DNA of 64,000 nucleotides from Planctomycetota bacterium (GCA_965223505.1 CBDCWP010000013.1:160001-224000); one strand, 5' to 3'. Counted from the first letter of the stretch, positions 4,481 through 36,230 are shown. Numbers and translations are program-made. Notes: a model not told the origin generated them from the letters alone.

Positions 4481-4496
4481 AGCAATTTCTGTGCCA
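4481..4496 (-). promoter_or_regulatory. sigma54 (-24/-12) promoter of the PRC-barrel gene
   Basis: TGGCACAGAAATTGCT on the minus strand, 55 bp upstream of the start. Confidence 0.8.
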
Positions 4497-4582
4497 ATAG
4501 TGAAAATTGTAACATTTTTGGAAAAAGACAAAGATTTGACAGGATATCTATTAAGGAGATATTGGCGATATCTAACATTGAC

Positions 4583-4617
4583 TCTCAAATTGAGCCAGTA
4601 TATTAGTCAAAATAAAA
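4583..4617. promoter_or_regulatory. Putative tandem activator-binding sites (UAS)
   Basis: TCTCAAATTGAGC at 4583 and AGTCAAAATAAAA at 4605. Confidence 0.5.
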
Positions 4618-4731
4618 GGGATGAGGCCAATTGAATGAGGCGGGCGCCGTCAAGAGCTGATTTACAAAACACCGTTATTAAGGATATCTAAAATTCTCTA
4701 GGGCCAACGCCATCACGCCGCTGGTATCAGG

Positions 4732-5790
4732 TCATGGTTCCCGATGGCCTCGCTCAATTTTCTCTTCGACTTCACGTCGCTCATCTGCTTTGAGACTGGG
4801 TTCCTCTTGCTGCGTTTCGGCTTGTAAACTCAAATTGAGAGACACGTAGACAGGAAAGTGATCGGAGCCAAAGGCCGGAAGACGTTTCAAGGCAATGAGA
4901 CCAAAGTCATCGGAGTGAAAAACGTGGTCGAGCGGCCAGCGCAGAAGGGGCATTTTAGCGCTAAAACTATTGTACAGACCTCGACCTATGCGGGGATCGA
5001 GCATTTTGCTGGTCTTTTGAAATAGCGCCGTGGTGCGCGACCACGCCACATCATTGAGATCGCCCGCTACAATCACCGGTTGCGTTAACGACCGCGCTTC
5101 GCGCCCGACCATAAGCAATTCCGCGTCGCGTTTTGTCGTCTTCTCACTCTCACTTGGAGCAGGCGGTTTTGGGTGCAGCGCATAGAGCCAAATATTCCGA
5201 CCAGATGCTAGGGTGAGTTGAGTTCGAATAGATGGAATCTCATTGTCGAGAAGAAAGCGCACCTCCGGCGCGATGAGGGGCAATCGTGAGTAAAGGAGCA
5301 TGCCGTACGTATTCGGCAATGGTTTCTTGACCGTATTCGCGTAATCTGTCTCTAATGGCGCGAGTTGTTTCTCCCACCAGGCGTCCGCTTCTAAGATCAG
5401 CACCACATCGGGCGATGCGTCGCGTACGATACGGAGAAACTTGGCGGCCTGCCGATTCTCCATCAACACATTTGAGACCACAATGGCGATACGGTCATGA
5501 CGTGAACCGTCGCTGGTCATGACGACTTCTGAAGCCGCTAAGGGAGTATAGGGATAGATGGTATACACTTGATAAACGAGACAAACGATGAGGACGCCAA
5601 CCGTGCAATACTCAAGTGGGAACGCAAGAGGGCGCATGAACCAAAAAGCGATGGCGACGCCGCATCCCAAGCCTAAGATTTGCAGGCGAGGAAAATCAAA
5701 GGCGCGAATCCACCAGGCGTCGGCCCGTATTACCGGAATCACTGTGGCAAGGATGAGCAACCAGGCTAAGACAGAGAGTGCAATTTTCAT
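4732..5790 (-). CDS. Endonuclease/exonuclease/phosphatase family protein (YafD-like) with N-terminal TM segments
   Basis: SNVLMEN, AGDLNDV, PLDHVF and GSDHFP motifs. Confidence 0.9.
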   Translation of the reverse strand: MKIALSVLAWLLILATVIPVIRADAWWIRAFDFPRLQILGLGCGVAIAFWFMRPLAFPLEYCTVGVLIVCLVYQVYTIYPYTPLAASEVVMTSDGSRHDRIAIVVSNVLMENRQAAKFLRIVRDASPDVVLILEADAWWEKQLAPLETDYANTVKKPLPNTYGMLLYSRLPLIAPEVRFLLDNEIPSIRTQLTLASGRNIWLYALHPKPPAPSESEKTTKRDAELLMVGREARSLTQPVIVAGDLNDVAWSRTTALFQKTSKMLDPRIGRGLYNSFSAKMPLLRWPLDHVFHSDDFGLIALKRLPAFGSDHFPVYVSLNLSLQAETQQEEPSLKADERREVEEKIERGHREP

Positions 5791-5862
5791 CTACGCCATC
5801 CCGAGCGGGTAAAAAGAAAGAGGCAATCTATGCGGCCTTACGCGCGCGAGTCGTCGTCTGGC

Positions 5863-7221
5863 TTAATGGAGCTGATATTCTTTGAGTTTGCGATACAACG
5901 TCGCAGGAGCAATGGCGAGCTGTCGCGCCGTAGCCTGACGATTTCCAGCATGGTGTCGCAGGGCTTGAAGAATGGCCTCCCGTTCCACTGTCGCGAGGTC
6001 TGAATGAACAGGGAGCATAAGATAGTCCTCTTCATCCATCAGATGACCGAGGCGTTGATGGCTCAAGTCCAAGTCGTTAATCGTAATGGATGTTGACTGG
6101 CAAAGCACAACAGCTCGTTCGATCACATTTTCCAACTCGCGAACATTTCCTGGCCAGTCGTACGACTTCATCGCTTCTAATGCTTCAGATTGAATAGACG
6201 CGACTTCTTTGTGGTTCATCTCGGCGTATCGACGGATAAAATGAGAGGCTAATAAAGGAATGTCGGAGCGCCGCTCTCGCAAGGCCGGCAGGTGTATGGC
6301 AATGACATTGAGGCGGTAATAAAGATCCTCGCGAAAACGCCGCATCCTCACCTCTTCCGCGAGGTTTTTATTGGTGGCCGTAATCAGTCGCACATCCGCA
6401 CGGAGGTCTTGCCTGCCGCCAAGCCGCCTAAACGCGCCGTCTTGTAGAACACGCAACAGTTTAGCCTGGATCTCCATGGGCATGTCGCCAACTTCATCTA
6501 AAAACAACGTGCCCCCATCAGCCAACTCAAAATGTCCGGGTTTGCGTTCGTAAGCCCCAGTAAACGCGCCTTTCTCGTAGCCAAACAATTCCGCCTCTAA
6601 TAAGGCCGGAGGTAAGGCGGCAGCGTTAAGGACGATAAAAGGTTGCGATGCGCGGGTGCTCAAGCGATGCGCCATCGTAGCGATCACTTCTTTACCAGTG
6701 CCGCTTTCGCCAGTCACGAGCAGCGTCGCTCGCGAGGGCGCGACGTGACTAACCAGCTCGCGGATGTGACGCCAAGCTTGGCTGGAACCGATCACCTCGG
6801 ACTGAGAAAATTGGTCGCGAACTTGTTTCTTGAGTATCCGATTTTCAACGATGAGCGCCTGCACGGCGCTCGCTTTTTGTAACGTGATGACGGTGCGTTC
6901 GCGGCTCATCGGTTTAACCAAATAGTCAAAAGCGCCTTCTTTCATGGCTTCAACCGCAACCTCGATATCCTGGCCGCCAGACATGATAATGACGCAGATG
7001 CCCGGATGCTCAGCCTTCACCTGCCGAAGCAGGTCGAGGCCACTCATGCCACCCATCTTGACATCGGTCAAGAGCAGATCGATATCATGCTGCCCAAGCA
7101 GTGATAAGGCCTCTTCGCCGGATGTCGTCGTGGTGACAGTATAACCCTCCTGAGTCAACATAACCTCTAGCGCTCTCAGCGTGCTCGCGACATCGTCAAC
7201 GACCAAGACGTGCGGCATCAT
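5863..7221 (-). CDS. sigma54-dependent response regulator (NtrC/AtoC family: REC-AAA+-Fis HTH)
   Basis: VVDD/LLTDVKM REC domain, GESGTGKE, GAFTGA, WPGNVREL, C-terminal HTH. Confidence 0.95.
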   Translation of the reverse strand: MMPHVLVVDDVASTLRALEVMLTQEGYTVTTTTSGEEALSLLGQHDIDLLLTDVKMGGMSGLDLLRQVKAEHPGICVIIMSGGQDIEVAVEAMKEGAFDYLVKPMSRERTVITLQKASAVQALIVENRILKKQVRDQFSQSEVIGSSQAWRHIRELVSHVAPSRATLLVTGESGTGKEVIATMAHRLSTRASQPFIVLNAAALPPALLEAELFGYEKGAFTGAYERKPGHFELADGGTLFLDEVGDMPMEIQAKLLRVLQDGAFRRLGGRQDLRADVRLITATNKNLAEEVRMRRFREDLYYRLNVIAIHLPALRERRSDIPLLASHFIRRYAEMNHKEVASIQSEALEAMKSYDWPGNVRELENVIERAVVLCQSTSITINDLDLSHQRLGHLMDEEDYLMLPVHSDLATVEREAILQALRHHAGNRQATARQLAIAPATLYRKLKEYQLH

Positions 7222-7308: not shown

Positions 7309-7476
7309 TCAAATTCTTCGACGCGTGGCATTCATGATCAACGAGATCACGAAAATCACTAAAAAGATAAAAAATAGAATCTTAGCAATGCCGGCCGCCG
7401 CCCCGGCCACGCCGCCAAACCCAAGCACGGCGGCGATTAGCGCGATTACCAAAAACACTAACGCCCAGCTCAGCAT
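7309..7476 (-). CDS. DUF1328 (YtjA/UPF0391) small membrane protein, absent from the ORF track (55 aa)
   Basis: Manual translation [65 protein letters not shown]. Confidence 0.9.
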
Positions 7477-7616: not shown

Positions 7617-7623
7617 GTATCGA

Positions 7624-7839
7624 TTAAGGCGCCGTTCGCTCGTAGTCGTTGAGACGGCGCGTCACCTCAGCTCTAGCCTCTTCCTTCGTCCACCCATAGC
7701 GCTCTTGCATTTTGCCGACGAGTTTGTCCTGATCGCCGTCAATTTGGTCGAGTTCGTCATCGGTTAACTCCCCCCACCACTTTTTTGCTTCGCCTCGAAT
7801 CTGTTTCCATTTTCCCTTTAATACATCTGTGTTCATCAC
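7624..7839 (-). CDS. csbD: CsbD family general stress protein
   Basis: KGKWKQIRGEAKKWWGELTDDEL...QERYG. Confidence 0.92.
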   Translation of the reverse strand: MMNTDVLKGKWKQIRGEAKKWWGELTDDELDQIDGDQDKLVGKMQERYGWTKEEARAEVTRRLNDYERTAP

Positions 7840-7946: not shown

Positions 7947-7962
7947 AGCAATGATCGTGCCA
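7947..7962 (-). promoter_or_regulatory. sigma54 promoter of the csbD unit
   Basis: TGGCACGATCATTGCT on the minus strand. Confidence 0.85.
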
Positions 7963-8035
7963 ATCCGCTCATCGGCAATCGGCTTGAGAAAAGGGGCGTT
8001 AAGCTGAGAGATTGAGAAACGAGTGTCAGCATGTG

Positions 8036-8068
8036 TTTAATTTTGAGAATATTACTTTCATTTTAAGA
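8036..8068. promoter_or_regulatory. Putative tandem UAS shared by divergent sigma54 promoters
   Basis: TTTAATTTTGAGA at 8036 and TTTCATTTTAAGA at 8056. Confidence 0.55.
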
Positions 8069-8160
8069 GTATGCACGCTTGGCTGCTCCGTCTCAACAGC
8101 GCTGGAGCCCAGTGACCCCAGATCGTTTGGGAAAACAGCCGTAGCGACAATTTGTGGCGA

Positions 8161-8176
8161 TGGTACAAGGCTTGCA
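8161..8176 (+). promoter_or_regulatory. sigma54 promoter of the phosphatidyltransferase gene
   Basis: TGGTACAAGGCTTGCA. Confidence 0.7.
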
Positions 8177-8249
8177 ACAATTAGCAGCGATAGCGGCAGC
8201 GCTGTGATGGCGCCAAAAAACTTTTGACACACGTTTGGGAGAAAGCGTC

Positions 8250-8882
8250 ATGATCCCCTCTGACCGAACCCATTTGACGATGTTGCGTTCGTTTCGGCCT
8301 CCCGATGTTCTGACATTCGCCAACGCCAGCTGCGGCATGCTCGCCATTTTTCTCTGTCTAAGCTACCTCGACAGTGGACAGCATCCTACCTTTGGCATCG
8401 TTTTTTTACTACTGCCATTAGCTCTGGTATTTGATTTGCTCGACGGGGTTGTGGCGCGCTGGTTGAAGCGCACGTCGGTGCTTGGCGCTGACCTCGACTC
8501 CCTGGCCGATAGTCTCTCTTTTGGCGTCGCGCCGGCCGTGCTCGGCTATACCCTTGGCCTGCGCGGCGGCTGGGATGTCTGCATCCTGACTTATTTTGTC
8601 GCCTGCGGGCTGAGCCGCTTGGCGCGCTATAACGTCACGGCGGTCACGCTATCTGATATCGAAGGCAAAGTTCGCTATTATGAAGGGGTCCCCATACCGG
8701 CCAATGTGCTTTTGGTGTTGCTGTTGGGCCTCGCGTTCGCCCTCGGGCGCGTCGGCCCCAATATGTGGCTTGGCGCCTATGCCGTTGGCCCGGCGGTCTT
8801 GCATCCCATAGCCCTCCTTTATGGCGTCAGCGGGAGTTTGATGATCAGCCGCACCATTCGCATCCCCAAACCTGGGTGGTAA
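8250..8882 (+). CDS. pssA: CDP-alcohol phosphatidyltransferase (PssA-like)
   Basis: DLLDGVVAR...GADLDSLADSLSFGVAP, RLARYN; start uncertain. Confidence 0.85.
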   Translation: MIPSDRTHLTMLRSFRPPDVLTFANASCGMLAIFLCLSYLDSGQHPTFGIVFLLLPLALVFDLLDGVVARWLKRTSVLGADLDSLADSLSFGVAPAVLGYTLGLRGGWDVCILTYFVACGLSRLARYNVTAVTLSDIEGKVRYYEGVPIPANVLLVLLLGLAFALGRVGPNMWLGAYAVGPAVLHPIALLYGVSGSLMISRTIRIPKPGW

Positions 8883-9023: not shown

Positions 9024-10151
9024 ATGTCATCCACATCGCTGAGTCAAGGATCGACGGGTAGGACATGGCCAGGCAATGCCGCAAACCAATCTGGCGATCA
9101 ACGCCAGGGGGCGGAAGTTGCTGGACGATTATCCGAACTGGCGGCGGGTGTCGCCATTTTGGGACCGGACGCGACGGTGTCTTCCTGGAGCGCCTCAGCT
9201 GCGGCGATGACGGGCTATACCCTTGATCAGGTGCGTCAAATCGGGCTCGCCGCCATCTTTGAACCGGCAGAGGTGATGCGGCATATGCTATACAAAGGCG
9301 GCGCTGGAGTCCCAACCCCTAGTGAGTATCTCCAACTGCGACACGGGGATGGCCATCTGATCCCGGTGCTGGCCCAGTGCGCTCCCCAGCGCCGCCAGCG
9401 ACAACACCCGTGTCCTTTAGCCTTGGTGTTTCGCCCCATTGATGTCCATCTTGAAAACTTGCGCCAAGATGAACACTGGATGGTCATGGGGCGGTTTTCC
9501 AGCTCGTTGTCACACGACATTCGCAATCAACTCAACGCGGTGATGTTGCACACGGATGTCCTAAGCGACGCCTTGGACGACGCGCCCTCTGAGACGCGCG
9601 TCGCCATGACCGAATCCGTGGAGGATATCCGGCGCGAAATCAACCGCCTACACGAGCTGCTCGATCAAATGCTCTCTCTGGGCCGTTTGACCCGGCTAAA
9701 TCTTGAGCCGGTGATGCTCGCCACATTGATAGAGGCATTAGGAGAAGAAATCGAACCGCTGCTTTCGTCACACGGCATTCGGCTGCATCAGCGCCTGAGC
9801 GCAGAGCTTGGCGAGGTTGGCTTACACGCCAATACCTTTCGCTATCTATGGCTCAATCTGGTTCGCAACGCCATTGAGGCGATGCCGGACGGGGGCGAAC
9901 TCACCATCTGCGCTGAGTGCTCGGACGATGAAGCGCGTTTGACCATCACCGATACGGGCGCAGGCGTTGCCATGGACCAAATCCCCTTGCTCTTTGCCCC
10001 GTTTCAGACCACAAAACCAGATGGCGCTGGCCTTGGGCTTTACATCGCGCAGGAAATTGCCGAGGCTCACCAGGGGCGTATTGAAGTCTCTAATGAAGGA
10101 GGCTTGGGCGCGTCTGTCACCGTGACGCTGCCAATATTGAAACCGGTCTAG
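9024..10151 (+). CDS. PAS-domain sensor histidine kinase
   Basis: SHDIRNQL H-box, NLVRNA N-box, DTGAG and GAGLGL G-boxes. Confidence 0.9.
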   Translation: MSSTSLSQGSTGRTWPGNAANQSGDQRQGAEVAGRLSELAAGVAILGPDATVSSWSASAAAMTGYTLDQVRQIGLAAIFEPAEVMRHMLYKGGAGVPTPSEYLQLRHGDGHLIPVLAQCAPQRRQRQHPCPLALVFRPIDVHLENLRQDEHWMVMGRFSSSLSHDIRNQLNAVMLHTDVLSDALDDAPSETRVAMTESVEDIRREINRLHELLDQMLSLGRLTRLNLEPVMLATLIEALGEEIEPLLSSHGIRLHQRLSAELGEVGLHANTFRYLWLNLVRNAIEAMPDGGELTICAECSDDEARLTITDTGAGVAMDQIPLLFAPFQTTKPDGAGLGLYIAQEIAEAHQGRIEVSNEGGLGASVTVTLPILKPV

Positions 10152-10182: not shown

Positions 10183-11076
10183 CTAAGATGCAGGTTGGCG
10201 ATCGTTATCGTGGCTCGCCTGCTCGCGTTTGGCCAGTTCGAACGGTTCCTTAAAGGTTAATGTCCGATAGGGAAATGGTATCTCGATGCCGGCGTCGTCA
10301 AGGGCTCGCTTGACGGCTGCGACCACTTGATCTCGCGAACTACGGATGTCGACAGGTTGGGAGCCGGTCCACCAGGCGACTTCGAAATCGATGCTGCTTG
10401 GACCAAATGCCTGAGCAAAGATCTGCACCTCGTGATCGTTGTCGACGCTCTCTAGCGTCGTCACGGCTTGGCGGATCACGTCGCGGGCGTGATCGACATC
10501 TTCGCCATAGGCGACCCCGCAAATGATCGTCACGCGCCGATGATCGAGATCCGTCCGCACGGTAACGGGGTTTTTAAACAGCTGCGCGTTTGGTATCACC
10601 ACGCGTTGCCCGTCGGTTTGACGCAGGTGGGTATCGCGAATGGTAATCTGTTCCACCCGTCCCTCAATGTTTCCGGTTTCGATGAAATCTTTAATGGCAA
10701 ACGGCTCTCGAAGCAAAATTAAAACACCGGCAAAGAAGTTTTCAAAAATATCCTTAAAGGCGAAGCCGATGGCGATCGACCCGAGCCCGAGCGTGGTCAA
10801 CACTCTGGCCGGCGTGAGGGTGGGAAACACAATGAGGGCGGCGGCGAGAAGCCCGATGGTCCACAGGGTGGATGCGATCAACTTTTGACCCAATTCAACG
10901 AGTGAGGCGCGGAACCGGAAGCGCGACAGAAGCGCAGCGGCTAGAGGACGGATGATGCGGTTGAGTAGCCATGTGGCGGCTAAAACCAATAGGCCAAAGC
11001 CAAGCTGCGGTAAGTGCGCGAGAAAAGCCTGACTCATGCCGCGCAATTGCTCCGAGATAATCTGAAGGGCTTCCAT
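10183..11076 (-). CDS. mscS: Small-conductance mechanosensitive channel
   Basis: IGFAFKDIFENFFAG, IPNAQL, GIEIPFP. Confidence 0.9.
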   Translation of the reverse strand: MEALQIISEQLRGMSQAFLAHLPQLGFGLLVLAATWLLNRIIRPLAAALLSRFRFRASLVELGQKLIASTLWTIGLLAAALIVFPTLTPARVLTTLGLGSIAIGFAFKDIFENFFAGVLILLREPFAIKDFIETGNIEGRVEQITIRDTHLRQTDGQRVVIPNAQLFKNPVTVRTDLDHRRVTIICGVAYGEDVDHARDVIRQAVTTLESVDNDHEVQIFAQAFGPSSIDFEVAWWTGSQPVDIRSSRDQVVAAVKRALDDAGIEIPFPYRTLTFKEPFELAKREQASHDNDRQPAS

Positions 11077-11180: not shown

Positions 11181-11196
11181 CGCAAATGTTATGCCA
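11181..11196 (-). promoter_or_regulatory. sigma54 promoter of mscS
   Basis: TGGCATAACATTTGCG on the minus strand. Confidence 0.75.
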
Positions 11197-11252: not shown

Positions 11253-11268
11253 TGGCACAAATTTTGCT
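11253..11268 (+). promoter_or_regulatory. sigma54 promoter of the lipoprotein gene
   Basis: TGGCACAAATTTTGCT. Confidence 0.85.
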
Positions 11269-11337: not shown

Positions 11338-11787
11338 ATGCCTATCATGAAGTGGATCATGGTAATCGCGTCAATATTCGCCGTGATGGCTTGCGGCCAA
11401 CAAGAAACGACGCAATCTGCTACGGAGGACGTTAAGTCTTCCGCCGCAGAACTAAAACGCGAGAGCAAAGAATTGTTGGGCGCCATCCGTGATTTTACCA
11501 TGGATCAGAAAGAAATTTTGCAACAAAAAGTCCGTCAACAATTATCGACTTTTGACGATAAGATCGACCATTTACAAGCTAAAGCAGAAAATGCTAACGA
11601 CGAGGCTAAAGCTCAATGGGATGCCCTGTCTATTGATATGAAGAAAAAGCTTGAGGTGGCTGAGCAACGTGCAGAACGTCTAAAAGACGTTAGCGCCGAC
11701 AAGTGGGATGACGTTAAAGCCAGTTTATCTGCCGCTTTGGAAGATATTGAAGAGGCCTACAATAGGGCTGTTGCGCGTTTGCAATAA
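11338..11787 (+). CDS. Coiled-coil (apolipoprotein/LEA-like) lipoprotein
   Basis: Lipobox-like VMAC, charged helical body ending ADKWDDVK; AAGGAG RBS. Confidence 0.75.
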   Translation: MPIMKWIMVIASIFAVMACGQQETTQSATEDVKSSAAELKRESKELLGAIRDFTMDQKEILQQKVRQQLSTFDDKIDHLQAKAENANDEAKAQWDALSIDMKKKLEVAEQRAERLKDVSADKWDDVKASLSAALEDIEEAYNRAVARLQ

Positions 11788-11880: not shown

Positions 11881-12590
11881 AAACGCAGTTTGTTTCCTGC
11901 CATTGTCGACATCATTATCCTAGATGACAACGGGATGCGCACCTAATACTACTTTGTCATTTTGCCAACATGTGAGCAGCCCTCGTGATTGAGGATACGG
12001 GCCTAGGCATCCCTGAGGCGCTACAGGAGCGAGTGTTTGAACCCTTTTTTTCCCACCAAGCCGGTGGGGGAAGGCGCGGGTCTTCGGTTCTCATTTTGCA
12101 AAGGCATTATCGAAAACCACGACGGCCGTCTAGCCGTTGAGAACGCGCCCCAACGCGGCGCCGCGGTTCGCGTCGAGTTGCCCATTAGGCCGGCCGCCAA
12201 GGCAAACGCATTCTAATCATTGATGATGAAGATAGTATTCGACGCGCCTTGTCACGACTTCTCAGTCCTGATGGCTATCGCGTGGAGACGGCGGCCAATG
12301 GGCGCTTAGCGCTCGAACAAATCGCATTGACCGCCTACAATCTTCTCATTTTCGACTGGCGCATGCCCGAACTCGACGGCCAGGGCTTTTATCAAGCGTT
12401 ACAGGAGAACAACCCCGAACTTTGCCGCCGCGTGATCTTTTTGACCGGCGATGTGTTGAGCCCTGATCTCGAAGCTTGTATTGACCAGAGCCCGACGGCT
12501 CGGTTGCATAAACCGTTTAGCGCCGCTGCTTGTCGCCGGATTGTTCATCAGACGTTGCAGCGCCTTGAAGCATCGGGCGACTCCCCTTGA
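11881..12590 (+). pseudogene. Degraded hybrid histidine kinase (possible PAC relic, frameshifted HATPase, REC domain)
   Basis: LVIEDTGLGIPEALQERVFEPFF, frameshift at the T7 run 12045-12051, PTKPVGEGAG...RVELP, second frame change, then GKRILIIDDEDSIRRAL REC; no HisKA domain and no start codon. Confidence 0.75.
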
Positions 12591-12789
12591 GGGCATGATA
12601 AATCAACGCGCCGCCGCCAGCGACGAGAGCCAGGTGACCGAGCGAACGGCGCAAACCATAGCACGCGAGAGCGGCGCCGCCTACAAAAGACGCCAGCCGC
12701 TCGGCGTTGCTCATCGAGGTCGGAACAGGACATTCAGGAACGGGTCGGGGATCGCCAGGCGAGGCCTGGGCTGTCGTTGTTTGTGTCAT
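12517..12789 (-). CDS. DUF2892-like membrane protein, probably 3'-truncated
   Basis: NAERLASFVGGAALACYGLRR...GGALIYHALKG; 3' end overlaps the convergent REC relic. Confidence 0.6.
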   Translation of the reverse strand: MTQTTTAQASPGDPRPVPECPVPTSMSNAERLASFVGGAALACYGLRRSLGHLALVAGGGALIYHALKGSRPMLQGAATSDEQSGDKQRR

Positions 12790-13316
12790 TATTGCTTCAC
12801 CGCCTCTTCTCTTGTTGACTCCGCTTCAACACCCATCATGGTGACTTCGCGCTTTCGTTCATACCGCTCATCGGTGGACGCATTAGGGGTCTCCGTGGCT
12901 GGCTGAAACCAATCGCCCAGACCATCCCAGACGCCGCACATCCAGTCGCAAACCGATTGCAACAGGCCCGGGCTAGCTAATGCGCCTGACGGCGAGGCCT
13001 CTTGGCGCGAGCGCGCCAGCCATGCGTAAGCGGCGCTCAGACCCACGACGCCCAAAATGAGCAAGACGACATCAAAACCCTTGTGCGGACGCCGCTGCTT
13101 CAACAGCGACAGACGTTGCGCTCGACGCCACTTGGGGAGATGCAGAGGGCGCAAATCAGAAGAGGCATCCTCTAGCAAGTCCCCGACGCGATGCGAAGCA
13201 GACAAGAGCTGCGCCCGTGTGCGAGCGCGACGCTGCCGCCCGCGAGCAGGATCCATCCAGTACATCATGCCCGCTCCAAGCCCAATGCTGCCGAGTAAAA
13301 ACCATTCTCGTTTCAT
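12789..13316 (-). CDS. YtxH/BON-N-terminus-like membrane protein
   Basis: GLGAGMMYWMDPARGRQRRA motif; AAGGAAGG RBS. Confidence 0.6.
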   Translation of the reverse strand: MKREWFLLGSIGLGAGMMYWMDPARGRQRRARTRAQLLSASHRVGDLLEDASSDLRPLHLPKWRRAQRLSLLKQRRPHKGFDVVLLILGVVGLSAAYAWLARSRQEASPSGALASPGLLQSVCDWMCGVWDGLGDWFQPATETPNASTDERYERKREVTMMGVEAESTREEAVKQ

Positions 13317-13772: not shown

Positions 13773-13995
13773 CGTATTTCCCCCATCTCTTGACATCGAT
13801 CGTAATGACCTGGCTCGGAGCCGACTCAGGCGTTGCGGAGAAAACATGTCGCCATCCGGTTGAGCGCTACTCAACTGCTAGTTACAGCGTATCGACCAAA
13901 GCCGATGGCGCCAGATGCTTGGGCGGTTCAGCGCCCACAGCTAGGCTCAATGCCAAGGCGAGCCTACGCATTTCAATCTGTCTCAGGCAGGAAAA

Positions 13996-14011
13996 CGCAA
14001 GATTTATGCCA
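13996..14011 (-). promoter_or_regulatory. sigma54 promoter of the response regulator unit
   Basis: TGGCATAAATCTTGCG on the minus strand. Confidence 0.75.
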
Positions 14012-27560: not shown

Positions 27561-27576
27561 TGGCACGCTTTTTGCT
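27561..27576 (+). promoter_or_regulatory. sigma54 promoter of the sigma70-family gene
   Basis: TGGCACGCTTTTTGCT, essentially consensus. Confidence 0.85.
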
Positions 27577-27618: not shown

Positions 27619-29157
27619 ATGCGTCGGCGCTTCTATTGCAAAAGGAAACACCGCGTATCAGTTTGTTCCACATGGAGGTTGGAGGCGCTCGTGTTGTCTT
27701 TATCTCATCGCATCGTTGAAGATGAACCATTCCTCGGGTCTTGGCGAACAGCTCCCCCCGCTGTCGCTCAGGCAGATCATTCTCAGTGGACAGCCGCTCA
27801 CGCCGGTGTTGGAGCCGAGGCGCATCGTCCCTCAGGGTCGGCGGGGTTCGAGGCGAAGGATCACCGCACGAACGAAATGCTTGCCCGCTATCTGGAAGAC
27901 GTTAGCCAATACCCTCTGCTAAGCTCGGCGGAGGAACAAGCTGTATGGCGGCGGGTGACGCACTGGCAAGAGCGTTGGCGACGCGCCATCTTCCTTTCGC
28001 CGGTTGCGTTGCCAACGCTAATCACGCTGTGGCGTCAGGCGCAACGCGGCGACATACCACTCGAACGTCTTCTTCAATTGTCCCCATCCGCCTCGTCTCA
28101 ACCAGATGGGGACATCAATCAGCTCGACGCGTGCGTGTCGCATTTGCGCGCCCTCTCGACCCGTCTGCAGGGCCTGACCCGCCAGGGTCAGACAGGCATC
28201 GGTTCGCCTTGCGAGCAACATGAGAGCCGGAGACGCCGTCGACAACTCTGGCGCGAATGGCTGGCGTTCTGGAATGACATGCCACTTGCCTCTGAGGCGC
28301 TCGACACGATGGCCCAAGCCCTCCAGAACGCCGTGCGCAGACAGTCTGAATGCCCGGCTCTACGCGCAGCTCACTGCGCGTTGGTACGCGCCGACCGGGA
28401 AACCGAGCAAGCCAAAACGCAAATGCTTTTGTCCAACCTGCGTTTGGTCGTCTATATGGCTAAGCGGCGCCGCAGTTCCCATCTCGCCTTGCTTGACCTG
28501 ATCCAAGAGGGCAACGCTGGGCTCATGCGGGCGCTAAAGCGTTTTGATCCTCATCGCGGCGCGAAGTTTTCGACCTATGCGTGTTGGTGGATTCGCCAAG
28601 CGATCGACCGAGCCTTGGTGAACCAAGATGAGACGATCCGCGTGCCTAATCATGTGATCGAACGCAAAAAAAAGTTGCAGGCCGCGGTCGCCGCATTTCG
28701 CCAGCGGCATCGGCGTGCGCCCACCGATCAGGAATTGAGCGCGGCGCTCGCCTGGCCGCTGCATGTGGTCGAACGAACCCACCAGACGCAGCATCCTGTC
28801 CGCTGGTTACACGAAGGTAATGACGATGGCGATCTCAGGTTCGACGATATCGCGCCAGATGCCCAACGTTTACCGCCCGACGAAGAAATCGCTCGTCTCC
28901 AGTTGCAACAATGCCTTGAGACCTCCCTTGACGCCTTGCCGAAGCGCGATGCGCAAGTCCTGCGGTTGCGCTTTGGGTTAGAGACCGACTGCGCGTACAC
29001 TTTAAAAGAGATCGGTGAGCAAATGGGGCTCAGTCGTGAGCGCATCCGCCAAATTGAAAAAGGCGCTCTCCAGAAGTTGCGGCGTTCGGCAGTAGGCGCC
29101 TCACTCGCTGAGGCGGCGGGTCTTGCTAAGACATATGGATCGATGTCCGAAACCTAG
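27619..29157 (+). CDS. Group 2 (RpoS/RpoD-like) sigma70 factor with a non-conserved region; start uncertain
   Basis: Region 1.2 YLEDVSQYPLLS, region 2 NLRLVV...DLIQEGN...KFSTYACWWIRQAI, region 4 TLKEIG..GLSRERIRQIE; no acidic region 1.1. Confidence 0.9.
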   Translation: MRRRFYCKRKHRVSVCSTWRLEALVLSLSHRIVEDEPFLGSWRTAPPAVAQADHSQWTAAHAGVGAEAHRPSGSAGFEAKDHRTNEMLARYLEDVSQYPLLSSAEEQAVWRRVTHWQERWRRAIFLSPVALPTLITLWRQAQRGDIPLERLLQLSPSASSQPDGDINQLDACVSHLRALSTRLQGLTRQGQTGIGSPCEQHESRRRRRQLWREWLAFWNDMPLASEALDTMAQALQNAVRRQSECPALRAAHCALVRADRETEQAKTQMLLSNLRLVVYMAKRRRSSHLALLDLIQEGNAGLMRALKRFDPHRGAKFSTYACWWIRQAIDRALVNQDETIRVPNHVIERKKKLQAAVAAFRQRHRRAPTDQELSAALAWPLHVVERTHQTQHPVRWLHEGNDDGDLRFDDIAPDAQRLPPDEEIARLQLQQCLETSLDALPKRDAQVLRLRFGLETDCAYTLKEIGEQMGLSRERIRQIEKGALQKLRRSAVGASLAEAAGLAKTYGSMSET

Positions 29158-29248: not shown

Positions 29249-32200
29249 TCATGACAGACGCTGTAACGTTTGCTGAACAAGCCCCCGGATATCGGCTGCC
29301 CGAAACGGCTTGGCCAGATAGGGCGCACGACACTCATCGAGAAACGTTTTTGCCTCTGGACTCATGGTGTCGCCAGTCAAAAAGATAAAGTGTTGTTGTA
29401 GATGCGGATGTTCGCAGGCTAAGGTCCGGTAGAGAGTAGGGCCATCAAGCTCCGGCATTCGGAGGTCGCACAAGATGAGATCATAAGAACGCGCCCGTAG
29501 CTTGTCGAGGGCCTCACGGCCATTCGAGGCCGTATCGAGGGTGTGGCCGTCGCGTTGAAACACGCGAACTAACGCTTTGGTCGTACCGACTTCATCATCG
29601 ACGATGAGAAGGTCTTTGCCGCTAATTGGCGAGTCGATGTCGGGCGCCGTCGCCTCGACCGTGGCGGCGGGGATCTCCGTGACGGGAAGCTCGACGCGAA
29701 AAACGGCGCCCTGTTCCGTTTCGCTCTCGACATGCAGTTGACCGCCGTGGCTCTCGATAATTCCCTGACACAGCGGGAGGCCTAAGCCGGTGCCGACGCC
29801 AGGCGGCTTGGTCGTGAAAAACGGTTCGAGGATCCGTTCCAGCACCTCGGGGGGGATCCCTGGACCATTGTCGGCTACCTCGACAATCACCTGATCGGGA
29901 GTCGCCTCGAACCGGGTTGTCATCGTGATCCGGCGCGGCGGCGGGCTGTCGTGTAGGGCTTGCAGCGCATTGGTGATCAGATTGATAACGACCTGATGGA
30001 GTTGATGCGGGTCGGCCCAAAGCAAAGGAAGGTCGGCGCACAGCTTGCGTTCCACCTCAATATCATCGAGCTGCAGGGTGTACGTCAGCACCTGCATCGC
30101 GTCTTCAATAATCTCGTTGATGTTGACCGCCGTCTTCTCCGGTAGGTCTTGCCGCGCGAGGGTGAGAAAATGACGCACCAGCCGCACACAACGCGCTGCG
30201 GCCTGGCTAATGTCCGCGACAAGACCCGAGAGTTCCTCGTCAACGCTTTCTTCATGTAATAGATCCGCCTGCACCGTGATGGCGGTAAGGGGGTTGTTGA
30301 GTTCGTGCGCCACGTTAGCCAGCAAACCACTCATGGCCGCCAGTTTTTCGCTTTGATACAAGGCTTCCTGTTGGCGCCTCAGAGTTTCTTCCGCTCGCTG
30401 GCGTTCGCGGATTTCCTCATGCAACGCCGTGTTACTCTGAAGCAATAACACCGATTGACGTTGCCGCTCTGCAATGTATTGCGCATTGACGATCGCGATA
30501 GTCGCCTGACTGGCAAAGAGGGCAAGCAACTGGCTGTCCGCCTCACTAAACATGTGATGATGGGGCGGGCTGTCAAGAAGAATGACGCCTACCAAGCGAC
30601 TTTTGTAGAGCAGCGGTTCGGCGATCAAAGCCCTCGCGCCAAGGTATTTGAGAAAGGCGTGGGTCATGTACGGCGAATGCCGATAATCGTCAACCCGAAG
30701 TCCCTTCCGGCGTTGGGCGACCACTCCGGCCGCGCCTTCTCCCAGCGCCAGGTTGACGTTTTGCATCCAGGGGCCTCGTCCGCGCCAGACTCTTGGCGCG
30801 AGCCGCTCCGTCTCTTCGTCCCACTGGAAGATGACTCCCGACTGCGCTTCGGGCAGCACTTCCATCGCCCGTTCGATCATTAAGGGCAACAAGGTGGGCA
30901 GGTCGAGTTCGCGCGTCAGTTCGGCGCCCATGGCGCGGAGAACCTCCAGTTGCTCAAGCCGGCGCGATAGGCTGGCTTCAGCGTGCTCGCGCTCCGTGAT
31001 TTCATGGGTTAAAGCCTGATTGGCGGCGCTGAGCTGAATGGCTCGTTGCTGCGTGGTTTGCACAAAGTAGGCCAGCGACGCGAGGAGGAGGGCGGTCGCA
31101 AGGCCGATGAGCAATATCAGGGCAGGCAATGCTGACAGCGTTTCCTTCAACAACTCCGGCGCCGGCCAGATACGCATGCGCCATGTGACGCCAGGCGGCT
31201 CCAGGCTAACGTTCCGCCCCCATGCGCTGCGAAATAGCGTTTGGTTATCGCGATAGCCATAGAGCGTCTCATCCCCGTCTGAGAGGGACCAGGCCAAGTC
31301 AGGCGCATGGATGGTTGCGACCTGGTGCAGAAGGGATTGTATTTGATACCAACTGATGAGAAAGCCGCCAAAACCGGCTTGTCGCATAAGGGGGACAATG
31401 ATCTGGAGTCCACCGGGCTGTATGCCTGCAAGCGCGTGCGCGACCGTGACTTCGCCGCTGTGGCGCGCCGAGTCGAGGATACGGCGCTGTCGGGGCGTGG
31501 CGGCAAGGGATTGGCCTTCGACGCCTTGGTCCTCTTCGCGAGTTTGGAGCCAACGAATGCGCCACTCAGGATCGACCCACAGGATCGCTTGTAGATAGGG
31601 GTCACGCTGCTGATAACGCATCACATCTTTTTCCCAGACGTCCCCATATGGCGATTCTATCGATTCCCAGAGGGCCGTTAGGTACACCAGTTCCTGGATG
31701 CGAGAATTGACCTGCGCGACGATTTCTGCTTGTAACTTGGTTGCGCCCTGGTCAACTGTTTTGCGAATGATCGCGTGCTCGTTCGCCAACAGCGCCTGCC
31801 AGAGACACAGGGTGAGGGCGATGACGCCGACGCCCGCGATGACGGGAAGGCGAGGCGCGGTCGCCGTTGCCTCAGCGCGATACCGGCGCCAGATATACGC
31901 GATGACGCCGAGGCTTAAAACGATAAACCCGACCGCGGTATGGACCGCCATATCGGTAAACAGCTGCCAACTGTAAGCGGACTGCCAACCTGTTAAATAG
32001 CCGATGCAGGCGAGCAACCCAAAAGCAAGGACCATCCACCCCAGCAATCCAGATACCAGGTAGGCGAATTCAGAGCGGCGCGGTTTGGCAATGACGATGA
32101 GCGCGACTCCAATCCACAAAAAACACAGCGCCGTCTGCGGCGCCATGCGCCCAGGATGCGCAGTTTTAACGGTGATCGAAGCGCGCATGATGAGCTGATC

Positions 32201-32575
32201 GATTATGAGGTCGAGCCCAAACAGATACTCGCATAAAGTCAATAAACTAATCGCCGCCGCCAACAGACTCCCGATTGGGACCACGCGCCTCCAACCGGCG
32301 GCGAGCGCCATGAGACTAATGCCGCAACACAAAAAACACAGGGCCGTGTTGACCTGCATCGGCGCGAGAGAGGGGCGCACTTGCACCAGCGCCGCGCTTT
32401 GCGCATACCATCCAATAAGGACAGCCAGACCCAAGACGACGACGCAGACAGCGAGGATTCCAGGTGTGAGCGTGGATGCCGGCGAGTCGATTAACCATCT
32501 TTTCGTCGAAGCGCGCCCTGACATAGGGCCCTTCCTCCTGCTTGCTCTTCCATGATGCGCCATCGAGATCGTCAC
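29249..32575 (-). CDS. Membrane hybrid histidine kinase (multi-TM, CHASE-like, GAF, HisKA, HATPase, REC)
   Basis: [27 protein letters not shown]-terminal [12 protein letters not shown]; start uncertain. Confidence 0.9.
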
Positions 32576-32653: not shown

Positions 32654-34333
32654 CTATCTCCCGCAGGCGCCCCAAACGATGCCCAGAAACGCGCCGATGC
32701 TAGCGCCTGAGATCGCGTATTTCTGGAAACCTGTATGCAATGCCTGTTGAATAGTCGGGAGCGCCCCACGCCAGTCGACTCTAAGCAACGCCTCCACCAG
32801 GGCGTCTTCGGGCGCTGTGCTTAGCCCAATTGGCGTCAGCCCCATCATCATACTAACGCCGACGCCAATGCCGACGCCTAGGATGCCGCCGCTGAGGATG
32901 CGGCCCCAAGGAGATGGACCGCCTTGGCTCACGGGAATTGCCGGGCGTCTGCATGCGCCCCAGAACATCCCCCAGAACACGCCCCACGCAACGCTCCATC
33001 GAGCGCCCCAGCCGAGCGTCCACAGCATGTCAAGGTTGGCTTGTAAGGCGAGGGTCGGCGCCAATAGAACCCGTACGAGCAACCACACCAAGGCGCCAGA
33101 GATAGCGCCCCACAGAGCGCCGCTGAGAACGGACCTCATCCATGAAGGGCGCGACGTCGCGCGCGGGACTGGCGGCGTTGGATGCGGCGAGGTCGCCGCC
33201 GGCATCGGGCGTGTCGGCGGCGCAGGCGAGCGCAAAGGCATTTGAGCAGGCGGGGCCGCCTGTGTGTGATGCTGGCCTTGAACCGCTTGACGCGATGGAA
33301 ACGGATCGCGTCCTCCTAGGCGTTTAGCGCGTTCGCACCAAGGGCAACTTGAACAATGCTCGCTATACAGGTGTTGCTCATTCGCCCGGCATGAAATCAG
33401 GGTGCGTTCTGCTTCACGCAACGCCTTTTGCCAAGCGTGCGCATCCGGTCGGAGGCCAGGATTGGCGTGGCCTTTTTCGAAGCAGGTGAGAAAGAGATCT
33501 TGCAACGCCGGGTGCAAAAGCGCAAAAGATGGCGCAAAGGGCATGGGGTGATAGGGGCCGGCGCAGTGTTGACTATAGGGAAAATGGCCCGACGCAATGC
33601 GCGCCTCATAGGGCGGTGGGTCGCCTTGGCCCTGAAAGACGCCTGCAAACGGGTGGACGCCTTCCATGAGCAATTGAAAAATCAACACCGCCAAGCCGAA
33701 CCGATCGTGCTCGGGAACTCGGTCGATGTCGGCAAAAGCGCGACCCTGGAGTTCAGGCGGCGTATACTCCGGTCGGCCGACGGGGCAGCGATAGATCGCG
33801 CCATTTTGAGGCTCGCGCACCTGAAAAGAATCGGTGTCCACAAGCGTCACCAGCGCCGTATCCGTAACGAGCATGTTGGCGGCGTTCACATCGCCGATCA
33901 CGTAGCCTCGATCGTGCAAGGCGCGCACGGCGGCGGCAAGATTGTGACCGGTGCGATGCAGGTAGCGATAATTAAAAAGCGGCGATTGCTGACGACGCGT
34001 TCGGGGATTGTAATAGGTCATGATTGAGCGTATGTCGTCGGCGCGCCGCATGACGAAGCCGATGACCTGAGGCTGACGATCGGTCGTCAACAGCAGATCT
34101 AAAGGCCAGGCAATGGAGATATGCCCGTTGGCGGCCATGGGATCATCGGGCGCGTTGGCGATCATCGCGGCGAGCTTGCGCCCGTGGGCTGGCGTTGGGT
34201 GATGATACACTTTCGCCACGAGGGTTGTATCTCGGGGAATGTTGTAGATGCGCGCCTCCCCTCCGGCGCCGACGGTCGAAGCGGCGTCGAGCCGGAGAGA
34301 TTGCCCGGTGGATTGTCGTCGCGCCAGCATCAT
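32654..34333 (-). CDS. TerY-associated Ser/Thr kinase (YegI-like) with a C-terminal membrane region
   Basis: GAGGEA, VAKVYH, GDVN, LVDTDSF, YTPPEL, C..N..H...CPWC zinc motif. Confidence 0.85.
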   Translation of the reverse strand: MMLARRQSTGQSLRLDAASTVGAGGEARIYNIPRDTTLVAKVYHHPTPAHGRKLAAMIANAPDDPMAANGHISIAWPLDLLLTTDRQPQVIGFVMRRADDIRSIMTYYNPRTRRQQSPLFNYRYLHRTGHNLAAAVRALHDRGYVIGDVNAANMLVTDTALVTLVDTDSFQVREPQNGAIYRCPVGRPEYTPPELQGRAFADIDRVPEHDRFGLAVLIFQLLMEGVHPFAGVFQGQGDPPPYEARIASGHFPYSQHCAGPYHPMPFAPSFALLHPALQDLFLTCFEKGHANPGLRPDAHAWQKALREAERTLISCRANEQHLYSEHCSSCPWCERAKRLGGRDPFPSRQAVQGQHHTQAAPPAQMPLRSPAPPTRPMPAATSPHPTPPVPRATSRPSWMRSVLSGALWGAISGALVWLLVRVLLAPTLALQANLDMLWTLGWGARWSVAWGVFWGMFWGACRRPAIPVSQGGPSPWGRILSGGILGVGIGVGVSMMMGLTPIGLSTAPEDALVEALLRVDWRGALPTIQQALHTGFQKYAISGASIGAFLGIVWGACGR

Positions 34334-34337
34334 GCCC

Positions 34338-35105
34338 TCAATCGATAGCTGTTGCGACCACCAGCGTCAGATCATCATCCGTGCGTCCGGTGATGCGATC
34401 TGAGCGGAGGAACGCGTTGATTTGTTTTTGCGCTTCCGTCGCGTTGGTCGCGTCGGCGACAAAGCGAAACAAAGGCTTAAAAAAGGGCGCATGGGGCATG
34501 CCTGAGGGCATTCTGAGAGCGAGCCGCTGTAAACCATCGGTAAATGCGGCCAGCGACGTGGGTTTACCTGGCCACACGCGCACTTGCGCCGTGTTCAAAG
34601 CGTCAGGCGAACTCAGAAAGGTCGTTTCGTTGGCGTATTCGCCGCCCAACGGCGTCGTGAGGGCAATGACGTTGCCTTCACCATCCCCAACGACAACCGC
34701 GCCATCGCCAATTTGCATCACGGCAACCTGATCGGCGGTGGCGACAGCCAGAATCAAGGTGGTCGCGAGATGGCGGCTCGCGACCCGCCGCGCTGTCGCT
34801 TCCGCATCGACCGCGGCCCGCGCCGTTTGAACAGCCGTCGTCAGACACGCCCTCCACCCCGCATGATGGCGTGGCCAGGGCGATTGCGATAGCTGCGCGC
34901 AAAGTGTGGTGACGGCTGTTGATGAGGCCATGATGGCGCCGATTTGGCCGAGCGGCGCCGAGCCGGCGCCGTCGGCGACCGCCACCACCAGACCGCCATC
35001 GTCTATGGCGCGCCAGCCATGCGCGTCTTGGCATGGCTGGCTTCTCCGTTGATGGCCCGTTCCCTGCACTGATGCGCTCGCGACATGCCAGCGAGACGCG
35101 CTCAT
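34338..35105 (-). CDS. PP2C-like phosphatase (YegK-like)
   Basis: SVQGTGH...PCQD, VADGAGSA, IGDG, FTDG, TDDDLT. Confidence 0.9.
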   Translation of the reverse strand: MSASRWHVASASVQGTGHQRRSQPCQDAHGWRAIDDGGLVVAVADGAGSAPLGQIGAIMASSTAVTTLCAQLSQSPWPRHHAGWRACLTTAVQTARAAVDAEATARRVASRHLATTLILAVATADQVAVMQIGDGAVVVGDGEGNVIALTTPLGGEYANETTFLSSPDALNTAQVRVWPGKPTSLAAFTDGLQRLALRMPSGMPHAPFFKPLFRFVADATNATEAQKQINAFLRSDRITGRTDDDLTLVVATAID

Positions 35106-35157
35106 CGTAATTCTCCTCCTAAGTTGTCTAGCTAGTTGGGAGCTTGCTCATCGCTTT

Positions 35158-35832
35158 TTAAACGGTTCCCCACTCTGGCGGCGGCAAGGCCAACTGGTCA
35201 TCCGGTTGCGACTGCGCGACCGCCTGCATGCTGGCGGAAAGCCAGACAAACATATCGACAAAATTCAAGCCTTTGAGCTTGAGTGGCGTACGTTCGACAA
35301 TTGTGCCTAACCGCGTCATGTTCGCATTTTCCACGCCCACCGCGAAGAAGGCGAGGCGATTTTCCGCCTCGTCCGTCTTCAGGCGATGCGCGGCTTTCTC
35401 AACCACGTCATCGGGTTCATCCTGCGGTTCGCCATCCGTCATCATAAAGACCCAAGGGCGATAATAGGCTACCCCGTTCGCGCGGTATTGCTCCTTGCGC
35501 GCTTGGACCATATCCAACGCTTGGTGAATCGCAGCGCCCATATGGGTGTATCCTTGCGCCGTCAGGGTTGGCGGATCGAACTGGTCAACCGTCACGAAAT
35601 CCTGGACCATCTGCACATCGCTATCGAAGGTAACAATGGCCAGCTCGACTCGTCGCAGCGCGAGCGAATCGCCCATGAGGTCGTCTCGAAAGGCGCGCAA
35701 CCCCTCATTTAACGCATCGATTGGAGCACCCCGCATCGAACTTGAGGTATCGAGCAAGAGAACGCAAGGACAACGCGGCTCAGGATTCTCTGCAAATTCC
35801 ACCGCCTCTTCAAGATGCGTGGCTTCAGACAT
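35158..35832 (-). CDS. terY: TerY-like vWA domain protein (YegL-like)
   Basis: NPEPRCPCVLLLDTSSSM MIDAS motif, YYRPWVFMMTDG. Confidence 0.9.
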   Translation of the reverse strand: MSEATHLEEAVEFAENPEPRCPCVLLLDTSSSMRGAPIDALNEGLRAFRDDLMGDSLALRRVELAIVTFDSDVQMVQDFVTVDQFDPPTLTAQGYTHMGAAIHQALDMVQARKEQYRANGVAYYRPWVFMMTDGEPQDEPDDVVEKAAHRLKTDEAENRLAFFAVGVENANMTRLGTIVERTPLKLKGLNFVDMFVWLSASMQAVAQSQPDDQLALPPPEWGTV

Positions 35833-35858
35833 AGCATCTTCTCCTTCATTTTTATACT

Positions 35859-36102
35859 TTATTTCAGAATGGAGCTTTTTTCGATTTGTTTCTTTCGAGC
35901 TACATACTCTTGCCTATCGATTTTTCCTGTTCGATATTCTTCCTCTAACTGCTACATTTGACGATGCGCATGATATTCATAACCTGCTGCTCCAGCCGCC
36001 ACGCCCCCAAACAGCGCCTAGTCCGGCGCTTCCCAAATTACTGCTACCTCCAGATAGCAGAAAAAATGACAACAATAGTATTGGCGTCATTATTCGGGCC
36101 AT
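35859..36102 (-). pseudogene. Glycine-zipper lipoprotein pseudogene
   Basis: Signal peptide MARIMTPILLLSFFLLSGGS (no lipobox Cys), +1 frameshift near 36010, GGVAAGAAGYEYHAHRQM, TAG at 35952-35954, then QLEEEYRTGKIDRQEYVARKKQIEKSSILK. Confidence 0.65.
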
Positions 36103-36214
36103 ATCTCACTCCTATTTAAAAGCCGACTCACCTTTGCAGGTTTTCCATATTGATAGAATTTTAATGACTACAGGATCGAGACTCATGAGTGCTAACGCTA
36201 CATGTATAATAAAA

Positions 36215-36230
36215 AGCAAATCTCATGCCA
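36215..36230 (-). promoter_or_regulatory. sigma54 promoter of the lipoprotein-terY unit
   Basis: TGGCATGAGATTTGCT on the minus strand. Confidence 0.8.

Follow-up and report, generated by a model that had tools for sequence, protein, structure and literature searches.

General stress responses are, by textbook account, controlled by alternative sigma factors of the sigma-70 family, and CsbD, DUF1328, catalase, MscS and similar families usually belong to RpoS, SigB or EcfG regulons. A stretch of 64,000 nucleotides (nt) from an uncultured Planctomycetota bacterium, analysed here at its full length and referred to as the window (positions 160001-224000 of the 267-kb contig C13, in a genome of 5.15 Mb), raises the question of whether genes of this kind can be run by sigma-54 instead. 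An earlier reading of this DNA (hereafter, the sequence-only reading) had located 12 promoters of the -24/-12 type in one part of the window and proposed that this lineage directs its general stress response through sigma-54 and locally encoded activators. Our in silico results uphold a sigma-54 regulon of general-stress-type genes with local activators, whereas the extension to the whole lineage was contradicted by the related genomes and by the composition of the DNA. The boxes look like real sigma-54 promoters of one locally controlled regulon, because canonical -24/-12 boxes occur together with a shared enhancer and with two local NtrC-type activators accompanied by sensor kinases. We consider it likely that a block of ca. 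65-70 kb (C13:~129-198 kb, its right-hand 38 kb inside the window) contains at least 26 stress-protection transcription units wired as one sigma-54 regulon.

Clustering of -24/-12 promoters

The 12 boxes were all present, at the same coordinates and on the same strands as previously reported. The GG-N10-GC core was found in every one of them and TGGYAY-N5-TTGC in 11, and the described closeness to TGGCAC-N5-TTGCW amounted to an exact match in four (4481(-), 7947(-), 11253(+) and 27561(+)). The weakest box, 17556(+), reads CGGCAT-N5-TTGCC, with three mismatches and a deviation at the first base; its support comes from an enhancer pair and from an ATG preceded by a ribosome-binding site (RBS). 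When up to three mismatches were allowed, the consensus was not enriched in the window (295 matches, 307.6 expected). With at most one mismatch, nine matches were found against 3.02 expected, a number reached in 2 of 100 shuffles, and TGGYAY-N5-TTGC gave 13 matches against 0.68 expected, which none of 100 shuffles reached. These 13 comprise 11 of the reported sites and two intragenic matches (8425(+) and 32044(-)); none lies past 36.2 kb, in agreement with the earlier remark that the metabolic half beyond 38.4 kb is free of boxes. The four divergent pairs described among the 12 boxes are also real. The promoters and the units behind them are, in window coordinates:

4481-4496 (-): sigma-54 promoter, exact consensus; PRC-barrel gene (ca. 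3668-4426, Pfam PRC), ATG with an AAGGAG RBS 55 nt downstream
7947-7962 (-): sigma-54 promoter, exact consensus; likely operon of csbD (7624-7839), DUF1328 (7309-7476), activator 1 (5863-7221) and an EEP-family phosphatase/nuclease (4732-5790)
8161-8176 (+): sigma-54 promoter; PssA-like CDP-alcohol phosphatidyltransferase (8235-8882) and histidine kinase (9024-10151)
11181-11196 (-): sigma-54 promoter; MscS channel gene (10183-11076); no enhancer within 300 bp
11253-11268 (+): sigma-54 promoter, exact consensus; sll1863-family stress protein (ca. 11338-11787); no enhancer found
13996-14011 (-): sigma-54 promoter; single-domain response regulator (13374-13874) and a 175-amino-acid (aa) unknown protein (12789-13316)
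14302-14317 (+): sigma-54 promoter; small open reading frame(s) (ORFs; 14405-14789), Usp (14889-15362) and a PRC-barrel protein (15473-15988)
17556-17571 (+): weakest sigma-54 box; catalase gene (to 19160; Catalase 9e-195), ATG with TAAGGAGG RBS 81 nt downstream
25489-25504 (-): sigma-54 promoter; six genes from 25432 down to 19786, namely a 248-aa unknown protein, holin-X family, DUF3618, ion channel, SDR and trehalose synthase TreS
25703-25718 (+): sigma-54 promoter; DUF533 (25847-26491) and YihY/BrkB (26373-27551)
27561-27576 (+): sigma-54 promoter, exact consensus; sigma-70-family sigma factor gene (27619-29157)
36215-36230 (-): sigma-54 box; VWA (35158-35832), PP2C (34338-35105), kinase-like (32654-34333) and GAF hybrid histidine kinase (29249-32575) genes; the leader would measure ca. 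370 nt

A genome-wide scan with comparison to shuffled non-coding DNA, which the sequence-only reading had proposed as a check, placed the enrichment in the block. TGGYAY-N5-TTGC has 38 matches in the genome, 29 of them on C13 and 25 within C13:133478-196230, an interval of ca. 63 kb that begins 26.5 kb before the window and ends at its position 36230. In block DNA outside ORFs of at least 100 aa (13,473 bases), 15 matches were found against 0.118 expected from dinucleotide shuffles (maximum of 3 in 500), and the other 10 block matches fall under over-long or spurious ORFs of the crude gene call. Removing the two intragenic matches from the 25 and adding three one-base deviants (C13:133226(-), C13:152489(+) and window 17556(+)) gave a curated set of 26 sites, the logo of which is TGGCAT-R-N4-TTGCT. 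A same-strand ORF of at least 45 aa starts within 250 nt downstream of 24 of these sites, which largely bears out the claim that the boxes point at the downstream unit. Box 4481(-) lies inside the longest ORF and 17556(+) is 15 nt before the first ATG; each has a better, RBS-backed start further downstream. An origin of the boxes from a repeat element, as seen in another genome of the phylum (see below), was rejected because spacers and flanks vary among the 26 sites. An Rfam scan of the window returned no family, and a scan for sigma-70 promoter and terminator consensus sequences added nothing. The two intragenic matches, 8425-8439 (+) inside the PssA-like gene and 32044-32058 (-) inside the hybrid kinase gene, may be chance occurrences or internal promoters.

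A palindromic enhancer shared by the promoters

When words were counted in the 260 bp ahead of each box, TCTCAAA turned up in 16 of the 26 regions (ca. 2 expected), and its occurrences resolved into a 15-bp palindrome, CTCTCA-N3-TGAGAG. The four exact copies in the genome all lie in the block, as do all five copies with at most one mismatch and 10 of the 50 with at most two; the block makes up 1.4% of the genome. With a 23-bp position weight matrix (PWM) refined on the upstream regions of the block, 18 of the 26 boxes had a recognisable enhancer site (more than 9 bits) no farther than 300 bp away. A threshold of 16 bits left 14 matches genome-wide, 13 of them in the block, a specificity that is partly circular because the matrix was trained on the block, the exact-palindrome counts being less so. 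The spacing geometry is a stronger test of the enhancer than this genome-wide count. Among primary sites of at least 15 bits, 11 of 13 have a partner 20-22 bp away (partners of 6.2-16.3 bits); this spacing outranks all 250 other offsets (26-150 bp), and a 6-bit match in six positions has a chance probability of ca. 0.005. The distance from an enhancer site to the -24 box downstream is 60-250 bp, and the site is usually accompanied by a second, weaker copy two helical turns (20-22 bp) off. As dyad-symmetric, paired, upstream and regulon-specific elements, the predicted sites have the properties of the enhancer class. Three of the four divergent pairs in the window share one enhancer pair (8042/8062, 14162/14183 and 25595/25616); 11181(-)/11253(+) is without any. 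The predicted sites in the window, listed without strand, are:

4578-4622 (centres 4589 and 4611): enhancer pair, 19.0 and 6.6 bits, spaced by 22 bp; at -93/-115 relative to 4481(-)
8031-8073 (centres 8042 and 8062): enhancer pair, 13.6 and 20.8 bits, 20 bp apart; midway, at -100 and -99 from 7947(-)/8161(+)
14151-14194 (centres 14162 and 14183): enhancer pair, 7.1 and 24.5 bits, 21 bp apart; exact palindrome at 14176-14190; between 13996(-) and 14302(+)
17462-17505 (centres 17473 and 17494): enhancer pair, 17.0 and 11.4 bits, 21 bp apart; at -83/-62 from the catalase box
25584-25627 (centres 25595 and 25616): enhancer pair, 10.6 and 20.3 bits, 21 bp apart; between 25489(-) and 25703(+)
27414-27436 (centre 27425): single enhancer-like site, 15.0 bits; at -136 from the sigma-gene promoter 27561(+)
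36451-36494: enhancer pair, 18.8 and 6.2 bits; for 36215(-)
38177-38199: single strong palindrome, 23.3 bits, without a partner; ca. 80 bp ahead of the activator 2 start codon and not near any -24/-12 box

Two further sites were recorded. The sequence TGAGAGAATCTCTCA at window 19744-19758, directly downstream of the TreS gene, has the enhancer half-sites in opposite order. The sole enhancer-like match of at least 16 bits outside the block, C8:93645, is ca. 1 kb from another NtrC-type activator gene (C8:91209-92582).

Local activators, sensor kinases and a sigma-70-family sigma factor

The sequence-only reading had also claimed that the activators are encoded locally, and the predicted proteins agree with this: two NtrC-type activators with intact motifs are present in the block, together with sensor kinases. 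The activators and the kinase nearest to activator 1 are:

5863-7221 (-): activator 1, NtrC-type response-regulator enhancer-binding protein with REC, AAA+ with GAFTGA, and Fis-type helix-turn-helix (HTH); Pfam Sigma54_activat (3e-68), Response_reg and HTH_8
36746-38101 (-): activator 2, which shares 65% identity and the recognition helix with its paralog, activator 1
9024-10151 (+): AtoS/ZraS-like histidine kinase with HisKA and HATPase_c; NCBIfam AtoS 5.7e-47, below the cut-off

Both activators keep the receiver Asp (D52), the Walker A/B motifs, the sequence GESGTGKE, GAFTGA and the HTH, and in the alignment their recognition helices are identical (ATLYRKLKEY). By their receiver Asp, AAA+ motifs and Fis-type HTH, they fall within the class of NtrC-type enhancer-binding proteins. 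Neither qualifies as an NtrC, AtoC or ZraR equivalog, as both score under every NCBIfam cut-off (best, ntrC 438.8 vs. 558.6 and AtoC 466.3 vs. 714). Because the recognition helices are identical, the two activators are expected to read one palindrome; to our knowledge, CTCTCA-N3-TGAGAG is not recognised from any characterised activator. The kinase at 9024-10151 is, from its position, a candidate partner of activator 1. Positive feedback is likely because activator 1 (in the csbD unit) and this kinase (in the divergent unit) are served by one enhancer. The single palindrome upstream of activator 2, without a -24/-12 box, suggests autoregulation at another kind of promoter.

The product of 27619-29157 is a 512-aa protein with Sigma70 regions 2, 3 and 4 and an RpoD/RpoS-like C-terminus. 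It scores below all NCBIfam cut-offs, including that of the RpoS equivalog (214.7 bits, cut-off 378.7). The exact-consensus sigma-54 box ahead of this gene suggests a two-tier cascade. A second RpoD/RpoS-like sigma-70-family gene (213.6 bits, also below the cut-off) lies beyond the window at C13:236480-237184.

Genes behind the promoters

Pfam and NCBIfam scans covered 132, 133 and 115 ORFs and 24 proteins. Of the targets named in the sequence-only reading, csbD, DUF1328, catalase, TreS and MscS are present behind boxes; the gene called DUF883-like is DUF3618 by Pfam. TreS matched treS_nterm (4.6e-193) with 642.6 bits, just under the cut-off of 678.35. Upstream of the window, at C13:133-160 kb, the units encode AsmA and BON; two AI-2E-type permeases; the small proteins DUF5670, BON and holin-X; a YegS-type lipid kinase; a trypsin-like protease; a PRC-barrel protein; an aldehyde dehydrogenase; transglutaminase-like, MscS-BON, DUF2252 and RsbRD_N kinase proteins; DUF1206; DUF4112; and Pmp3. 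Behind the box at C13:155450(+), which has an enhancer pair, the genes of a caa3-type cytochrome oxidase operon form a complete set (AI-2E permease, COX2 through COX3, CtaG and cytochrome c) that extends into the window (1-2453). Judged by predicted family membership, this content (CsbD, DUF1328, BON, PRC-barrel, Usp, MscS, catalase, TreS and Pmp3) resembles that of RpoS, SigB and EcfG regulons. Assembly indels at 14545 and 14653 may have broken a single gene into the small ORFs at 14405-14789.

Comparison with known regulatory systems

The proposed mechanism is that of an ordinary sigma-54 system with NtrC-type enhancers. The Escherichia coli systems NtrC-glnAp2, ZraSR, AtoSC and PspF have the same GG-N10-GC promoter and an AAA+ activator with GAFTGA and a Fis-type HTH, in a response regulator. 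Tandem dyad sites about two helical turns apart are the known geometry of NtrC sites; classical regulons of this type share with the block such sites located ca. 100 bp upstream and an activator gene inside its own regulon. Unlike these regulons, the present one has 26 promoters in one block, its targets are of the general stress type rather than nitrogen, metal or phage-shock genes, and its activators score below every equivalog cut-off. It is unusual that so many promoters share one enhancer word, that they cluster in a single block and that the targets are of a kind that elsewhere belongs to RpoS, SigB or EcfG regulons.

The regulons of RpoS (Gammaproteobacteria), SigB (Firmicutes) and EcfG (Alphaproteobacteria) share with the block the families CsbD, DUF1328, BON/OsmY-like, catalase, trehalose synthesis, MscS, Usp, Pmp3 and aldehyde dehydrogenase. 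They depend on a sigma-70-family sigma factor and no ATP-driven activator, in contrast to the -24/-12 promoters with enhancers found here. A master sigma factor of the sigma-70 family was not indicated for the regulon promoters, which are of the -24/-12 type, and the sigma-70-family factor is itself a target. The nearest precedent for a sigma-54 promoter ahead of a stress sigma gene is the Rrp2-RpoN-RpoS pathway of Borrelia burgdorferi, in which, according to two reports, an NtrC-type activator and a sigma-54 promoter drive rpoS (PMC1976401, PMC4014564); the counterpart here is 27561(+) ahead of 27619-29157. As described there, the sigma-54 tier of Borrelia has essentially one target, rpoS, whereas in the block effector genes also appear to be directly driven by sigma-54, and the sigma factor of the block is not an RpoS equivalog.

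For class Planctomycetia, a recent in silico survey (Carrera-Reyna et al. 2025; PMC12316311) reports that predicted sigma-54 promoters are enriched upstream of MscS (COG0668), Usp (COG0589), histidine kinase, CheY-like and ZraR-type genes, and cites Studholme and Dixon (2004) on trends in the in silico sigma-54 regulon of this class. An association of sigma-54 with MscS and Usp is thus already in print. The reported enrichment is a COG-level statistic across genomes; neither a clustered island nor a common enhancer nor a dedicated pair of activators is described in the excerpts consulted, and the family of the present genome departs from the trend in having no excess of boxes. Full-text literature searches yielded no paper on a sigma-54-run regulon of CsbD, BON, PRC, catalase and TreS genes.

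Proposed mechanism and its meaning

From the motifs, statistics, geometry and protein features described above, we infer binding, signal, timing and physiological role as follows. The local histidine kinases would phosphorylate the receiver Asp of the activators. Activators 1 and 2, the likely readers of CTCTCA-N3-TGAGAG, would assemble on the tandem sites and loop to the promoter, where ATP and the GAFTGA loop would open the sigma-54 holoenzyme complexes. Divergent promoter pairs would be served by one common enhancer. The position of activator 1 and the kinase within regulated units would create positive feedback, and activator 2 would be autoregulated through the single palindrome over its own upstream region, which is not of the sigma-54 type. 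The switch probably feeds forward to a second tier through the sigma-70-family sigma factor. Protection against osmotic, desiccation, oxidative or stationary-phase stress is the favoured role. A further step, that the block is a programme for general stress or dormancy that is complete in itself, can be transferred and has a logic unlike that of RpoS, SigB or EcfG (one enhancer word, a phospho-activated activator pair, ca. 26 units switched at once, tight ATP-gated all-or-none control and a second tier via its own sigma factor), is proposed tentatively, and we regard it as possible rather than probable.

With protective genes of the textbook kinds behind sigma-54 promoters and one enhancer code, the block would show that such a programme can be built anew on promoters that are gated by activators and do not leak, and that it can be transferred in one piece. 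With 26 promoters, one palindrome and two activators, the block is a compact test set, useful for asking how one enhancer serves divergent pairs, and a possible source of tightly off/on parts. It also adds a concrete locus to a report on planctomycete MscS and Usp genes that is purely statistical (PMC12316311).

Composition and distribution of the block

The block has a GC content of 0.52-0.57, against 0.68 in the genome, and in long ORFs the GC content at third codon positions (GC3) is ca. 0.6 in the block and ca. 0.78 in both flanks on the same contig; the first 65 kb of C13 has the GC content usual for the genome. The host is a planctomycete, to judge from RpoB, the named relatives of which (80% identity and below) are all Planctomycetota; PF07596 gave one weak match in the genome. 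Orthologs of activator 1 were found in none of 40 relatives (best match, 46% identity) and, at E<=1e-150 with the four best candidates per genome scored, in none of 400 other genomes of the phylum. In the relatives, the box pattern occurred at the level of the reversed-pattern control, and a stricter pattern gave 0-2 matches each in the host's own family and order. The sole clear MscS ortholog (57% identity), in relative G027, lies directly after gdhA; the 400 nt in front of it are free of boxes, as are the first 60 kb of its contig. Conservation upstream of orthologs in relatives, suggested earlier as a check, was accordingly not seen at this gene. The statement that "this lineage" runs its general stress response through sigma-54 cannot be maintained for a block that is compositionally foreign. 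The wiring is a property of the block and not of the lineage, because activator orthologs are absent, the boxes of relatives are at control level and the composition is deviant. Deviant composition and absence from relatives, two marks of a horizontally acquired island, were both found.

Metagenome protein sets contain many homologs of activator 1 with 62-94% identity, among them one named Candidatus Tectomicrobia (64%); under the tentative reading of a transferable programme, they suggest that the module circulates among uncultured bacteria. Homologs of TreS with 83-99% identity exist, and its nearest named relatives are from Nitrosococcus and Binatia (70%). Searches of genome and metagenome contigs with activator 1 gave, among the matches listed, only generic NtrC-family proteins (identity up to 49-50%), a result with no bearing on absence. 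No match of at least 60% identity was present among the nine plasmid records with a match, and the ESM Atlas returned generic NtrC-like clusters only. Close variants of the stretch (88-99% alike) occur in contigs of two studies, with 2253 differences among the contigs compared.

Weighing of alternative explanations

Several results weigh against a single functional regulon on a mobile block. The sole rpoN found, at C37:19043-20484, has AID, CBD, DBD and the RpoN box, but the sequence is spread over three frames, one with AID, one with the beginning of CBD and one with the remainder of CBD and DBD. No enhancer was recognised within 300 bp of 8 of the 26 promoters, and no second upstream motif was found for these eight. 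Two curated sites, C13:152489(+) and window 36215(-), have no gene start nearby downstream. The partial circularity of the PWM counts belongs here as well. PF00589 integrases numbered 0 on C13 and 17 in the genome, and neither a tRNA nor flanking direct repeats were found at the block borders, the only tRNA-like call on C13 being at 102 kb; the label "island" therefore refers to composition and distribution only. No RNA runs were listed among the sequencing runs that contain the stretch.

The split rpoN would fit a regulon whose boxes are genuine but which is silent, the block being a recent acquisition that is not yet functional or is decaying. Histidine kinase fragments in the block (window 11985-12216 and a split RsbRD_N kinase at L095:10667-11951) point the same way, and rpoB and rpoC are each one open frame (7.6 kb together), so that frame errors are not everywhere in the assembly. 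However, assembly indels do occur, since same-sample short-read contigs differ from the assembly by single-base insertions at window 14545, 14653 and 17088 (among the differences listed), and rpoN is only 0.5-1.9 kb from a contig end. The genome has 23 intact, full-length sigma-54 activator genes, which would be hard to keep without sigma-54, and the 26 boxes and the palindromes are sharply conserved. Because of the intact activator genes, an assembly error in rpoN seems to us more likely than a dead gene, and we regard a silent regulon as improbable. A greater chance, although still short of even, is given to a real but narrow regulon that answers one condition, such as hyperosmotic or desiccation stress or an oxygen shift. 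Osmoprotection and envelope functions dominate the targets (two MscS, TreS, BON, Pmp3, the PssA-like lipid enzyme and AsmA), a complete oxidase operon is included, and the known sigma-54 stress systems (Psp, Zra, Rtc and Nor) are each specific. Against this, the content also takes in catalase, Usp, CsbD, aldehyde dehydrogenase, diverse sensor kinases and a further sigma factor, and is broader than that of known single-stress sigma-54 regulons.

The drop in GC content and the non-planctomycete names of the named activator and TreS relatives would also be expected if the block came from another organism and had been joined to C13 by mis-assembly or mis-binning. This is very unlikely, as DNA of higher GC3 lies on both sides within one contig, the contig begins with 65 kb at the usual GC content and estimated contamination is 1.66%. 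Equally doubtful is a replacement of the RpoS/SigB/EcfG-type general stress response by sigma-54 and local activators throughout the lineage. Such a replacement would account for gene content that matches classical general stress regulons, for the in silico enrichment at MscS and Usp reported for Planctomycetia (PMC12316311) and for the 30-50 consensus boxes (0-4 in the reversed control) in many other families of the phylum. It is at odds with the missing activator orthologs, with control-level boxes in the host's family and order, with the box-less MscS ortholog of G027 and with a codon composition unlike that of both flanks; moreover, the boxes of G050 and G080, two genomes of the same phylum, are dispersed rather than clustered and have another spacer consensus. 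A locally controlled sigma-54 regulon confined to the block thus remains our preferred interpretation.

Boxes in other genomes of the phylum

A divergent pair of boxes in G040 (L177, G040:C249, 10091-10252; A/T-rich, boxes 145 bp apart) was considered as a counterpart of the block and rejected, as it has no palindrome and an unrelated context. In G324, the strict box pattern gave 168 matches against 3 in the control, and the majority of the 100 matches listed consist of one and the same word, TGGCACGCTTTTTGCA, frequently located at the ends of contigs; these look like a multi-copy repeat carrying a perfect sigma-54-type box. In G050 and G080, 44 and 51 consensus boxes, respectively, lie dispersed (control, 1-2), with a fixed spacer in each genome (TGGCACGATATTTGCT in one and TGGCACGCCGTTTGCT in the other), and sigma-54 may be used very broadly in their families.

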